Source of the DNA: an uncultured Alphaproteobacteria bacterium
Lineage (GTDB): Bacteria; Pseudomonadota; Alphaproteobacteria; Micavibrionales; CSBR16-224
Assembly: GCA_950054485.1 (NCBI GenBank)
Contig: CATLPD010000007.1
Location: forward strand, 12,262-76,261
Length of the DNA stretch: 64,000 nt
Reading direction: 5' to 3'
This document shows, in pieces, positions 41,200 to 48,394 of the stretch. Numbering within the stretch: position 1 is the stretch's first letter; each line of letters starts with the position of its first letter. The translations under genes were made by a program, and so were the position numbers. The notes below the pieces were generated by a model. It did not search any database. It saw only the letters and a program-made list of their open reading frames with translations, and was not told the DNA's origin.

Positions 41200-41274
41200 G
41201 CCGGAGTAGCTCAGGGGTAGAGCAGTGCTTTCGTAAAGCAAAGGCCGGGTGTTCAAATCACCTCTCCGGCACCA
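41200..41274 (+). tRNA. tRNA-Thr (anticodon CGU)
   Basis: 75-nt cloverleaf: acceptor GCCGGAG/CTCCGGC, D-arm GCTC/GAGC, anticodon stem GTGCT/AGCAA with loop TTCGTAA, T-arm GGGTG-TTCAAAT-CACCT, encoded CCA. Confidence 0.9.
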
Positions 41275-41277
41275 TTT

Positions 41278-41832
41278 TTATAGCGCGGGAATTAAATACT
41301 TATCTTGGCGTGTACCATTTTTTCCTAGGTTTATCAGCTGCCCATTGCCTATTGTGAAGGTTTCTCCAACACCATACTCTACCCCATCCTGTTCTTGGAA
41401 GCTTATATAGTCGATGGACATTTTCAGAGCTGTTTCCTGTGTACTGGGTGACAAATAATTATTAATAAGTATTCTACCTTGAAAAATTTGCACAACTGCC
41501 CCTCTAGGCAAATCAGTAGAAAGTTCGACTTTTATCTGGCCATTAGCAATCGGGGATAAGTAACGCTCTCTGCTTTCTTCACAATCTTCTAAAAACTCGT
41601 TATGATATTGTCCATGAGGATAGTAAATGGGTATTCCATAGCTGCAACGCCCATTAATAGAATATATTATTTGAGTTAAACGAGGCTGATCACCATAAGT
41701 TTGCGAGATATCATTTAGGTTTTCTCTTATTTCTGCAGCTTCTTCATCGTACGCCCCCTTATCTACACACCCCGTGGCGAGTAATGATGCGGCAACTACT
41801 AACGTAGATTTTTTCCAAATTTTTTTTAACAT
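41278..41832 (-). CDS. Hypothetical lipoprotein (island cargo)
   Basis: The likely start is MLKKIWKKSTLVVAASLLATGC (lipobox). I recognise no domain. The stop codon is 3 nt from the tRNA-Thr end. Confidence 0.5.
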   Translation of the reverse strand: MLKKIWKKSTLVVAASLLATGCVDKGAYDEEAAEIRENLNDISQTYGDQPRLTQIIYSINGRCSYGIPIYYPHGQYHNEFLEDCEESRERYLSPIANGQIKVELSTDLPRGAVVQIFQGRILINNYLSPSTQETALKMSIDYISFQEQDGVEYGVGETFTIGNGQLINLGKNGTRQDKYLIPAL

Positions 41833-42139
41833 TATTAATTCTCCATTATAAAAAAGCTCTAGCATTATGCAATATAACGCGCCAATGATTCTGTCAAGTG
41901 GAAATATGTAAAAAACCGTTCGTGTTTTAAATTTTCCTTTGTAATTTTACCATCCCCATTTATGGTTAAGGCGGATCAGCAATTGCTGGTCTGGGGCTTA
42001 GTAACCCCTTTACTGGCGGCATTCTAGACACTGCCGTTATATGTGTTGCCTCTCAGCTTAATGGCTGGGTGGTGATGTCATGTTCAGGCGTAAGCTAAAA
42101 GCATCGCGCCGTTTCCAGTAAGCGGTTACTAACACCCAG

Positions 42140-42169
42140 CCACCAAGAGCAATCTTGGTGGTTTATTTA
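42140..42169 (+). terminator. Rho-independent terminator closing a structured non-coding region
   Basis: Perfect 9-bp stem CCACCAAGA-GCAA-TCTTGGTGG followed by TTTATTTA. It lies 23 nt upstream of the 42193 start codon. Confidence 0.7.
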
Positions 42170-42192
42170 TAACCGCATAGAAAGGCTAGAAC

Positions 42193-42591
42193 ATGAAGGT
42201 CCATCCAACCATAGAACTTATTTTTGTACGAACACTTTTAATCGGCATGTTCGTGGTATTCCCAATATTTTTGATCTGGGGGATATGGAATATTTTTTCG
42301 CACGAAATATCAAACAACGACAATAGTTATCAGGTGCAACAGGCAGTATGGATAGAACAAGGGAAAGATGCTGTTAAGACACGGCTAAAAGCCCCCTCCT
42401 CCGCAGAATTTAGAAATGTTTTCTTTAGCCAGAAGAGCGGAACACCTGTAACATGCGGCGAAGTTAATTCGAAGAATAGCTTAGGCGGGTATGCTGGATA
42501 TAAAGCTTTTGTTTCTGATGGCGGAAGCCGTACATTTCTCGCAGACGACGTAGACAATTTTGCCGAAGTTTGGTCAGAGCTGTGCCAATAA
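42193..42591 (+). CDS. Membrane-anchored hypothetical protein (island cargo)
   Basis: 132 aa. N-terminal TM segment (LLIGMFVVFPIFLIWGIW), then AVKTRLKAPSSAEFRNV...VTCGEVNSKNSLGGYAGYKAF. I recall seeing this motif in small proteins encoded by prophages and genomic islands. Confidence 0.5.
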   Translation: MKVHPTIELIFVRTLLIGMFVVFPIFLIWGIWNIFSHEISNNDNSYQVQQAVWIEQGKDAVKTRLKAPSSAEFRNVFFSQKSGTPVTCGEVNSKNSLGGYAGYKAFVSDGGSRTFLADDVDNFAEVWSELCQ

Positions 42592-42743
42592 CAAGGGCAC
42601 ATACTTGCCACCCTACATGTGCGCGAGAGGATAACAACAGAAAGAAATGCGAGGATGCGTAGAGATGCGTTTTTTATCCTTAAGGACAGAATGGGCTGTT
42701 AAGAACCATTTTACAGGCACCTTTGCCTCGCTCTGTCCGTTTT

Positions 42744-42912
42744 CCGGATGTTTTTATCCGGAAATTGATCGGGAAGATATATCCTTCCGAGGGTAAACAA
42801 TAAAACCGGATACCCGGATACACCGGATAATATATTACAAAAGGCAAAGTTTATGTTTATAGCTCTGCATTTTATAAAGTATAAAAATAAGCGGTGCATA
42901 CGGTTTATCCGG
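42744..42912. repeat. Iteron-like cluster of CCGGAT(A/G) motifs (candidate replication origin or primase-helicase binding region)
   Basis: Inverted pair CCGGAT-GTTTTT-ATCCGG at 42744-42761. Three tandem direct copies CCGGATA lie at 42806, 42814 and 42823, and an inverted copy TATCCGG at 42906-42912. The cluster is in the AT-rich non-coding stretch just downstream of the primase-helicase stop (42946). Confidence 0.55.
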
Positions 42913-47088: not shown

Positions 47089-47282
47089 TGTAACCAATCC
47101 TGTTGTTGACACTTAGATTCTTTATAAATGTCAAAAATGACAAAAGGCAACAAAAAACCATTAAAATCAATACACTATACAAATCAATCTTAAAAATTAT
47201 TGTTCTGTACAGATTTTGATAGATCGCACTAGAAGATTATTTCAGCCTTATTTTCGACACATTTTTGATATACAATAAAAGA

Positions 47283-47969
47283 ATGAGAAGTGAATCTGGA
47301 AATGCCCTGTTTTTGATTTTGATTGCGGTCGCGCTGTTCGCAGCGCTGTCTTATGCCTTGACAAATTCAGGGCGTGGTAATGGCGATATAGATAAGGAGA
47401 ACGCCGAAATTATGGTGGGGCAGATTATGGGCACTATCGGCAGCATGCAGCAAGGTTTTATGCGCCTAGACATTTCAGGTGGATATGACCAGATATTGTT
47501 TGATGATAGTGCCGAGACTGCCAGTGGGACATGTTACGATAATAACTCAACGACTTCGCCCTGCAACACTATTGGTTTATTTAATAGTGATACAGGTGTT
47601 CCAAAACCTTTCTTAAAAGATGAATACCACTATACAGGTGTTTTATCGTGGGGTTTTATAACCACACAGACCCAGTTAAGCGGTACGGAATTGGGCACGA
47701 CGGCTGCTGATGACATTTTGCGTTTGTCCTATATGCCGAAAACACTTTGCGAAGCATTGAATAAAAAACTTAATGGTAGCGCAACAATCGGCTCTGTCTC
47801 TAGTTATGCTGCCGGTACCGGTTGGTCAGAAGCTTGGATGCTGGAAGATGAAACATTCGGGCTTTATCTTGGGCCGACAGATTCAGGTATGGCTCTGGAT
47901 AATGAAGGATGTGTTACGTTTGACGGCGGAAATAACTTTGATTTTTACTATGTTTTTAAAGAACGTTAG
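47283..47969 (+). CDS. Hypothetical secreted/membrane protein with a pilin-like hydrophobic N-terminus (island cargo)
   Basis: [30 protein letters not shown] is followed by a Gly/Thr/Ser-rich domain with Cys pairs. There is no Glu at position +5, so it is not a canonical type IV prepilin. Confidence 0.5.
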   Translation: [228 protein letters not shown]

Positions 47970-47970
47970 A

Positions 47971-48093
47971 ATGGAAAAATACATTTTTAAAAACGAAAAC
48001 GCCCTGTTTTTAATTCTGCTCGCGCTCGCATTGTTTGCGGCACTGGCATATGCGATTATGAACGGGCAGCATGCCTCCAAATATTCGGGCTAA
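47971..48093 (+). CDS. Short ORF (40 aa) paralogous to the N-terminus of the preceding gene; possibly a truncated copy
   Basis: MEKYIFKNENALFLILLALALFAALAYAIMNG... parallels [25 protein letters not shown]. It starts 1 nt after the preceding stop. Confidence 0.35.
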   Translation: MEKYIFKNENALFLILLALALFAALAYAIMNGQHASKYSG

Positions 48094-48186
48094 GCCGAAG
48101 GCCATATAAACCCACCATCCGACACATTTCTCTTTTTCCACATTTTATCGCTCGGCGACTCGGGGACGCCCTTACAGGTGCCCCCC

Positions 48187-48205
48187 TAATAAGGCTATAA
48201 TAAGG
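48187..48205 (+). repeat. 19-mer TAATAAGGCTATAATAAGG, right copy (inside the island, 145 bp from attR)
   Basis: Identical to 41164-41182. Confidence 0.85.
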
Positions 48206-48349
48206 CTGCAGAAGACAGGCTAAAATTAGGCGAGCTTAAATAAACCAATTCCAAAAACATAAATAATGGTTTAAAAACAAATATTTATACCGCGAAAAGT
48301 CGCTAAAGCTTAAACCAGAACAAACCGTATTAAAACCGCTCCAAAATAA

Positions 48350-48394
48350 TTCGTAAAGCAAAGGTCGGGTGTTCAAATCACCTCTCCGGCACCA
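48350..48394 (+). repeat. attR: 45-bp duplicate of the tRNA-Thr 3' part (anticodon loop to CCA)
   Basis: TTCGTAAAGCAAAGGTCGGGTGTTCAAATCACCTCTCCGGCACCA matches 41230-41274 at 44 of 45 positions. Confidence 0.9.

Follow-up and report, generated by a model that had tools for sequence, protein, structure and literature searches.

Where does a small integrative island end, and what becomes of the host gene that it enters, when an intact tRNA gene appears to mark its edge? The question is raised by a 64,000-nt stretch of DNA (the window; coordinates without another prefix are window positions) from an uncultured alphaproteobacterium of the Micavibrio order, whose same-order relatives carry the name Micavibrio in their records. 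The stretch contains a tRNA-Thr(CGT) integration site with yaaA on one side and an unrelated gene on the other, occupied by an element that the original prediction had called a P4-like or satellite-like island of about 7.2 kb, defined by 45-bp direct repeats. The element is a 7,254-bp mobile integrative island with a replication module (approximately 41106 to 48359). As a whole it is best explained, with a probability that we put at about 0.8, as an integrative, self-replicating island that integrates through a short core, splits the host tRNA-Thr(CGT) gene and brings its own replacement tRNA. In kind it is an ordinary minimalist island built on int, alpA and primase genes, with two unusual traits of its family: integration that is tRNA-dependent, the replacement tRNA being built in, and a conserved cassette with a pseudoknotted RNA.

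The 45-bp direct repeat is real, and a repeat finder recovered both copies (41230 to 41274 and 48350 to 48394) with one mismatch. The true left junction, however, proves to be not the intact tRNA gene but a 5' half of tRNA-Thr(CGT) that sits 94 bp upstream of it and ends in the anticodon loop. The sequence that this half has in common with the displaced 3' half at the right end is only the core TTCGTAAAGC, identical at 10 of 10 positions; this 10-mer has three occurrences in the window against 0.15 expected. The two host halves lie 7.25 kb apart, and when the 5' half is joined to the right attachment site (attR) the product is a complete tRNA, identical at 75 of 75 positions to the tRNA of a genome of the same genus (G001), to which attR by itself is identical at 46 of 46. 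The intact tRNA carries C at position 46, where the reconstituted host gene and G001 carry T, and this is the sole difference. It is also the single tRNA-Thr(CGT) gene among the 37 tRNAs of the assembly (41200 to 41274). Both the intact tRNA and its promoter come from the element, and the two halves of the host gene remain apart. The original prediction had invoked the standard model of tRNA integration, of which one part stands, since attR is the original chromosomal 3' half; the other does not, as the tRNA is not completed by element DNA but is element-borne as a whole gene with its promoter.

The same layout of 5' half, spacer (about 95 to 145 bp), intact tRNA and element is found in seven relatives from different species and at three tRNAs, namely tRNA-Thr(CGT) in G060, L050 (Sneathiella) and L065, tRNA-Thr(TGT) in G016, G145 and L021, and tRNA-Arg(CCT) in L070. 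The distal, displaced 3' half was recovered in five of the seven; in L050 and L021 that end lies beyond the available DNA. Across the family, the sequence common to both junctions consists of the anticodon loop and one to three further bases (8 to 10 bp). In G060, the 5' fragment has the acceptor strand GCCGCTG and the anticodon stem strand ACCGC, for which the 3' fragment supplies the perfect partners CAGCGGC and GCGGT, whereas the stems of the intact tRNA (GCCGCAT/ATGCGGC and GTGCT/AGCAA) are unlike both fragments. L065 shows the same type of compensatory stem difference between its fragments and its intact tRNA. Because the fragments in these two elements pair with each other and differ from the intact gene, they derive from a single host gene that was cut in two, and the intact copy is a gene that the element itself contributes. 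The spacer is kept among elements of unrelated hosts (…GGGGTTACGATCTTGCCC…GTAATAAGGCTATAATAAGGTCG…). DNA upstream of the 5' halves is not conserved, except in G145, where the host tRNA promoter resembles the element promoter.

These comparisons bear on conventional integration at the 3' end of a tRNA gene, in which the crossover would have taken place within the 45-bp repeat, the intact tRNA would be a hybrid, and the 5' fragment with its 94-bp spacer would be the scar of an older tandem integration. The existence of a 45-bp repeat with a single mismatch fits that account, and in the window the host and element tRNAs are too alike to separate the two models. The recurrence of fragment and spacer in seven other elements nevertheless does not fit a chance scar. 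The intact tRNAs of G060 and L065 cannot be hybrids, their stems being self-consistent and unlike both of the mutually pairing fragments. The spacer, moreover, contains element-specific motifs that are repeated at the other end of the island, and the island-free site of a relative from the same family (G003) is without a fragment. Conventional 3'-end integration is on these grounds very improbable, and integration through a short core that splits the host gene is the preferred explanation.

By analogy, this integration matches the tRNA-dependent lysogeny described by Guerrero-Bustamante and Hatfull for actinobacteriophages such as Fionnbharth, in which a core of about 10 bp lies in a tRNA gene, the host tRNA is not reconstructed, a phage tRNA of the same isotype complements the loss, and arm-type sites flank the core (PMC10865867). 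The window element shares with it the core of about 10 bp in a tRNA gene, the unreconstructed host tRNA, an arm-binding integrase, paired arm-type sites and a single host copy of the tRNA; a need for the element tRNA is putative. It differs in that the carrier is a 7-kb island without structural genes and not a temperate phage, the hosts are alphaproteobacterial, the replacement tRNA lies inside an arm of the attachment site, 94 bp from the core, and the crossover falls in the anticodon loop. One possible tRNA-dependent case has been noted in Lactobacillus (prophage Lj965), and the spread of the mechanism has been posed as a question (PMC10865867).

The spacer between the left core and the intact tRNA contains a degenerate tRNA-like stretch, GAGGGTCG, and the best promoter-like site in the region, TTGCCC-16-TATAAT (41151 to 41178), which precedes the tRNA by 21 nt. 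A tandem motif with a 10-bp phase, TAATAAGGCTATAATAAGG, is also found there (41164 to 41182). A second copy, identical at 19 of 19 positions, is found 145 bp before the right core (48187 to 48205), and the 19-mer occurs exactly twice in 64 kb, against 0.03 occurrences expected. In each related element, tandem TA(A/G)nAAGG motifs form a matching pair of their own, about 145 to 165 bp before the right core and about 50 to 80 bp after the left core. The tandem TAAnAAGG motifs flanking the core are likely arm-type integrase sites. A third copy, inverted and imperfect (AATAAGGCTGAAATAA), is present on the minus strand between the integrase start and the pilin-like gene (47237 to 47252) and may be an operator for integrase autoregulation.

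In the mechanism proposed here, an arm-binding tyrosine integrase would recombine the host tRNA-Thr(CGT) gene with a short core in the element's attachment site (attP), the sequence TTCGTAAAGC, which imitates the anticodon loop. A core of about 10 bp is too short to rebuild the host gene, and the island would compensate for the split gene with the complete tRNA-Thr(CGT) and promoter carried inside its P' arm. Excision would restore the host tRNA gene exactly; it would probably require the AlpA-type helix-turn-helix (HTH) protein and perhaps the 181-aa protein encoded across the integrase stop, by analogy with the phage-inducible chromosomal minimalist islands (PICMI). The excised circle would replicate from an origin with ACCGGAT iterons by means of the primase-polymerase and superfamily 3 (SF3) helicase. 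As the island has no transfer or packaging genes, it would have to depend on a helper.

The open reading frames (ORFs) of the element and the family scans agree with the gene set as first described, comprising an integrase, an overlapping 181-aa gene, an AlpA-type HTH gene, a PrimPol/SF3 primase-helicase gene and four small genes, and with the statement that capsid and tail genes are absent (Table 1). Neither capsid, tail, terminase and conjugation genes nor other structural, lysis or repressor genes were found among the element ORFs with Pfam and PHROGs, and the window element showed no recognised relaxase or oriT. Int, the overlapping gene, alpA, the primase gene, the origin, the structured RNA with its small envelope-protein ORF and the tRNA are the conserved parts of the family, and the variable parts are two hotspots, one in the interval between the P arm and int and the other between the RNA cassette and the tRNA.

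Table 1. Positions of the attachment-site elements, genes and RNA of the island, with copies of the RNA elsewhere in the host genome
Feature	Position	Strand	Remarks
Host tRNA-Thr(CGT) 5' half, displaced	41066-41105	+	40/40 identical to positions 1-40 of the intact gene; ends in core TTCGTAAAGC (41096-41105); true attL (left attachment site) junction
Spacer, P' arm of element	41106-41199	+	94 bp; conserved between elements of different hosts
Intact tRNA-Thr(CGT), element-borne	41200-41274	+	Called by ARAGORN and Rfam
Lipoprotein, 184 aa	41278-41832	-	Lipobox LLATGC; tRNA-proximal hotspot
Pseudoknotted RNA, about 200 nt	41979-42179	+	Covariation; intrinsic terminator 42138-42163 and T-tract
Membrane-anchored protein, 132 aa	42193-42591	+	Starts 13 nt past the modelled RNA end (42179); phrog_2320 (4.5e-20)
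Candidate replication origin	42744-42965		CCGGAT(A/G) iterons around AT-rich DNA, directly downstream of the primase gene
PrimPol and DUF5906 (SF3/D5-type) primase-helicase, 725 aa	42946-45123	-	Prim-Pol 9.4e-17, DUF5906 6.5e-19; phrog_1156, DNA primase
AlpA/excisionase-type HTH protein, 73 aa	45138-45359	-	HTH_17 (PF12728), 28.9 bits against a cut-off of 27; phrog_66, excisionase/regulator
Integrase-overlapping gene, 181 aa	45390-45935	-	50-nt overlap with int; position of PICMI iolg
Tyrosine integrase, 408 aa	45886-47112	-	Arm-DNA-bind_3 3.2e-11, Phage_integrase 4.1e-12 (Pfam); phrog_1 1.4e-51
Protein with pilin-like N-terminus, 228 aa	47283-47969	+	Integrase-proximal hotspot
40-codon ORF	47971-48093	+	Truncated duplicate of the N-terminus of the 228-aa protein
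P arm of attachment site	48094-48349	+	Carries the second 19-mer copy (48187-48205)
Host tRNA-Thr(CGT) 3' half, displaced (attR)	48350-48394	+	Anticodon loop to CCA; core 48350-48359; 44/45 against the intact gene
Other RNA copies in the host genome (G000)	C2:200951-201143	-	
	C1:543344-543548	-	
	C4:155223-155424	+	
	C5:10022-10231	+	
	C1:745781-745980	+	

The integrase has an N-terminal arm-binding domain, the P4/lambda-type architecture, with Phage_int_M scoring under its cut-off, and it is the sole copy in the genome, the element being single-copy. A gene overlaps or abuts the int stop codon in every relative (134 to 208 aa), with overlaps of 8 nt in three and of 20 and 50 nt in two, and these genes are weakly related to each other and form one loose family. 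The 181-aa protein of the window has no family match, and its AlphaFold model is all-helical, with a low confidence (predicted local distance difference test [pLDDT] score of 62.5) that is too poor for a structure search. The 73-aa HTH protein, which has no Pfam match to PF05930 (AlpA) and a weak match to RdfS (8dgl; E = 0.11), is a probable recombination directionality factor on the basis of sequence. The helicase part of the primase (residues 407 to 576) matches the PDB entries 6k9c/6k9e, "Primase," at 8e-17. About 18 relatives of the primase, with 45 to 53% identity, were found, all within the same module of four genes (int, overlapping gene, HTH_17 gene, primase). The iteron region downstream of the primase gene, where 7 of the 22 CCGGATR sites of the window lie within 222 bp, makes a convincing candidate origin. 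Direct and inverted iterons of the ACCGGAT type are clear at the same place in G060, G145 and G207 and degenerate in G016; none were seen at the corresponding place in G132.

The comparison with known satellites does not sustain the label P4-like. Under the SatelliteFinder definition, P4-like satellites have seven core components, of which at most two may be missing, and 93% of them are found in Enterobacteriaceae (PMC10085698). The window element resembles them in its arm-type tyrosine integrase, its AlpA-like HTH protein, its primase-helicase with an adjacent iteron origin and its defence hotspots, and the first three of these would suit a strict P4-like satellite that resizes the capsid of a P2-like helper. 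Only three of the seven components are present, however: psu, delta, sid and epsilon matched no element ORF in Pfam or PHROGs, with no unassigned coding space left for them, and the primase is of the PrimPol/DUF5906 type and not P4 alpha, the P4-family model TIGR01613 scoring 19.7 bits against a cut-off of 108.7. Given also the largely enterobacterial distribution of such satellites, a strict P4-like identity can be accorded almost no weight. Phage-inducible chromosomal islands (PICI) and their capsid-forming counterparts (cfPICI) differ in having a packaging or capsid-redirection component (terS, ppi/cpm, capsid genes), which was not matched in the window element with Pfam or PHROGs.

The closest architecture is that of the PICMI of Vibrionaceae, which are about 6 kb in size and have no capsid genes (PMC10803314). 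In PICMI, a gene overlapping the integrase gene is essential for excision, alpA is the excision trigger, the primase is of the DUF5906/DUF3987 type, and a defence hotspot follows the primase gene; the model used to find them has int, alpA (PF05930/PF12728) and primase (DUF3987/DUF5906) co-localised (PMC10803314). The window element carries the mandatory families PF00589, PF12728 and PF19263 in adjacent genes. It shares the gene order int, overlapping gene, alpA and DUF5906 primase, a comparable size (7.25 kb versus about 6 kb) and a variable, defence-prone region beyond the primase; its 181-aa gene overlaps int as iolg does, a match by position only. It differs in lying in tRNA-Thr(CGT) and not downstream of fis, in its alphaproteobacterial host of the Micavibrio order, and in three additions: a tRNA of its own, the conserved cassette with the structured RNA and, upstream of int, a second hotspot. 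A phage-satellite life of the PICMI kind is the leading guess for this island, although a tentative one.

The same genes could serve a cargo shuttle or integrative plasmid that is not a satellite, resembling the tycheposons, whose circle would be spread by vesicles, transformation or mobilisation and not in phage capsids. Tycheposons are described as small tRNA-targeting elements with tyrosine recombinase, excisionase and primase/helicase genes, some being cargo shuttles and others satellite-like; integrated ones are flanked by partial tRNAs in the usual pattern, which sets them apart from the window element (bioRxiv 10.1101/2020.12.28.424599). They are a looser analogue than PICMI. A shuttle would account for an island with a complete integration and replication module and nothing related to packaging; cargo-only forms exist among the tycheposons (bioRxiv 10.1101/2020.12.28.424599), and the relative L021 adjoins DotM/TraG-type conjugation genes just outside its tRNA boundary. 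Set against this are the lack of any recognised relaxase or oriT in the window element and the PICMI themselves, which show that the same minimal gene set suffices for satellite life. A shuttle without a phage comes fairly close to an even chance.

The distribution of the family is patchy. No relative of the primase was found in the eight genomes from the same family, and among 301 genomes of the order 13 have one. A peptide-pattern search of reference genomes returned no close primase relatives, whereas an alignment search did find relatives. The tRNA-Thr locus does not have identical boundaries in all relatives. G003, of the same family, has yaaA, one intact tRNA-Thr(CGT) and a histidine kinase gene, with no integrase and no tRNA fragments. 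This island-free site and the patchy distribution of the primase bear out the original prediction of a mobile tRNA-Thr element with a replication module. In G001 the same tRNA-Thr(CGT) is followed by a tyrosine integrase of 430 aa, different from that of the window, and by a HicB-like gene (L130, G001:C205:1259-2765), while yaaA and the tRNA are separated by a metallophosphatase gene. Unrelated elements thus use this tRNA as an integration hotspot. This other integrase element rules out G001 as an empty site. A single genome of the same genus, 90% complete, was searched and did not yield the island, a result that suggests it was gained or lost recently.

A rival account would make the island an immobilised remnant that can no longer excise. 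The integrase carries a 14-aa C-terminal extension relative to its homologs, and no excision product was observed, both of which would suit a remnant. The four core genes, on the other hand, are full-length and align from end to end with those of the relatives, the cores (10/10) and the arm motifs (19/19) are identical, and the failure to find the island in the same-genus genome suggests that it was gained or lost recently. A remnant is therefore unlikely.

Several observations nevertheless count against reading the locus as a mobile, self-replicating island that integrates through a short core. The window on its own is compatible with a crossover within the 45-bp repeat, since the host halves are nearly identical to the element tRNA, and the argument has to be made from the spacer, from the arm motifs and by comparison within the family. 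Reading the 19-mer as an arm site is confounded by its overlap with the -10 box of the tRNA promoter, and the host tRNA promoter in G145 carries a sequence like the arm motif. Neither an excised circle nor an empty site from the same species was observed. Exact scans of metagenome and viral contigs for the predicted attP junction (...CCAAAATAA|TTCGTAAAGC|GAGGGTCGCAC) found nothing and are uninformative, and three element-sized metagenome contigs, whose ends did not overlap, showed no circular form. A helper phage, a pac/cos site or terS was likewise not identified, and viral contigs contained only distant relatives of the primase, the best of them 41% identical, which say nothing for or against a virion stage.

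The second unusual trait of the family is an RNA of about 200 nt that is encoded between the primase gene and the tRNA in 10 family elements, including that of the window. In an alignment of 30 homologs, 96.6% of the cells of the structure are paired, compared with 30 to 45% in slid controls, and 101 cells show double changes, compared with 7 to 17 in the slid controls, a number reached by none of 500 shuffles. RNAalifold reports 18 compensatory pairs. Strong covariation is seen in two long-range helices, and there is support for a pseudoknot helix of 9 bp. A hairpin proposed by RNAalifold (76-86/98-107) was replaced by the pseudoknot helix (97-105/171-179), which fits a compensatory change in L031. 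The RNA lies mostly 1 to 2 kb from the primase gene and antisense to it, with L222 and L070 deviating in strand or distance; no copy was detected in the Sneathiella element (L050), the distant L064 or the degenerate L065. The 3' domain resembles sRNA-Xcc1 (RF02221), a small RNA (sRNA) whose copies also sit on integrons, islands and phages: it matches the whole 87-nt model with 30.3 bits in the window and 32 to 36 bits in six homologs. These scores lie below the gathering score of 53, and the assignment was not made; the island RNA also differs in its length of about 200 nt, with extra covarying long-range helices and a pseudoknot. The RNA cassette is a well-supported candidate for a new RNA family, which may be cis-regulatory or consist of sRNAs.

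The RNA is not specific to the island, as the host genome contains six copies, one of them between rpsD and a methyltransferase gene, and one to eight copies are present in 39 of the 61 searched genomes of the order, the window genome included. Each host copy ends in a terminator followed by its own small secreted, membrane or lipoprotein ORF. Of the 29 homolog loci examined, 27 have a small, co-oriented ORF directly 3' of the RNA, as does each of the six host copies. The identity of this ORF varies, being a 132-aa protein in the window and in G145, a lipoprotein of a 200-aa family at six other loci and other small membrane proteins elsewhere. The 132-aa protein has a 50%-identical homolog at the same position in the Micavibrio element G145/L020 and phage-borne relatives in phrog_2320, a family with no assigned function. 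From position only, the best guess is that the envelope gene downstream is controlled by the RNA, acting as a leader in cis or as an sRNA.

The remaining cargo of the window element is less informative than that of its relatives. The original prediction had taken the variable ends for hotspots of anti-phage functions, and in the relatives both ends do carry recognised defence genes, including a type I restriction system with Abi_C (REase_I, E = 0), a retron-type reverse transcriptase (RT_II-A, 2e-18), a CapP-like peptidase (8e-33) and the candidate defence families PDC-M33A and PDC-S50, as well as, by Pfam only, a type IIG methylase-nuclease, HEPN, AAA_13, Schlafen/AlbA and a Bub-type ubiquitin-like module. 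The four small genes of the window, however, matched no family, of defence or of any other kind, in PADLOC, Pfam or NCBIfam, and the pilin-like gene is a copy from a host family. The hotspot idea is sound for the family; for the window's own cargo it is only a hope.

The 184-aa lipoprotein had no match in Pfam, PHROG, PADLOC or NCBIfam, is a singleton in its genome and has only 15 distant relatives among 1.84 billion representatives. The 228-aa protein belongs to a family with 41 matches, itself included, in its own 2.28-Mb genome. Members are 200 to 250 aa long (for example, C7:5440-6114, C1:628089-628763 and a cluster at C8:305-3570). Their N-terminus, running from M.. to (I/L)TxSGRG, is nearly invariant, also in DNA, and their C-termini are variable, contain Cys and often end in YHVLxAR; several copies have in-frame stops. 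Within the island, a 57-nt repeat that is 77% identical (47300 to 47356 and 47997 to 48053) links the gene to its truncated copy. Members of the family resemble pilins but lack Glu+5. Compared with the prepilin signal G|(F/M)xxxE, the 228-aa protein has the Gly and a hydrophobic helix after it but not the Glu, and no Pfam family matched, N_methyl included. The model of the protein (pLDDT 65.6) shows a broken N-terminal helix and a beta-sheet, with a best pilin match at a probability of 0.33 and a template modelling (TM) score of about 0.3. A Foldseek search of the PDB with this model returned nothing at E ≤ 0.001, and a weak sequence match to a designed beta-trefoil was recorded (1.7e-4).

Some further observations concern the tRNAs and the neighbourhood of the island. 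In the genus of the window, the tRNA-Thr(CGT), here and in G001 alike, carries an anticodon arm (GTGCT/AGCAA) whose top pair is G·A; the element-borne tRNA in G060 has this same arm. In the tRNA-Thr(CGT) of G003 the arm is ACGCA/TGCGT, which comes nearer to the split host genes of G060 and L065. To judge from these arms, the host tRNA-Thr(CGT) of the window genus may once have been converted by an element tRNA. The 21-kb Micavibrio family member in G145 carries, besides its own tRNA-Thr(TGT), a second complete tRNA, tRNA-Gln(TTG), that is 89% identical to the host tRNA-Gln after the displaced 3' half (joined coordinates 13477-13811, 34905-35061); this element has copied a two-tRNA cluster. Outside the island, a small signal recognition particle RNA of the bacterial type (RF00169, 56.7 bits) is encoded on the minus strand between dnaX and yaaA (40073 to 40172).

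Taken jointly, the most far-reaching interpretation would make the family a lineage of minimalist phage satellites that is new, living in the Micavibrio order and in other Alphaproteobacteria and freed by a portable, promoter-equipped tRNA in attP from identity with the 3' half of the host tRNA, as the first case of tRNA-dependent integration outside temperate phages, with the pseudoknotted RNA as a new regulator of an interchangeable cassette for an envelope (exclusion) protein. As a package this is doubtful. Islands of the order have been noticed before: the genome paper of Micavibrio aeruginosavorus reported islands that are flanked by tRNAs and encode integrases, primases and reverse transcriptases; it classed them as integrative and conjugative elements without analysing them further (PMC3189940). 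Tools of the Islander type take a regenerated tRNA as the island end; for this family, the boundary would be about 130 bp off and the inactivation of the host gene would be missed.

The presence of tRNA-dependent integration in small, non-phage islands of several alphaproteobacterial orders suggests that the mechanism reaches further than the actinophage cases. A plausible advantage, drawn from the differences between host and element tRNAs in G060 and G145, is that only the anticodon loop must match, so that an element can enter hosts with divergent tRNAs. We know of no described phages for Micavibrio. For the host cell, integration places its only tRNA-Thr(CGT) under an island-borne promoter, and for the order, which includes the predator Micavibrio, the family is a vehicle for defence systems.

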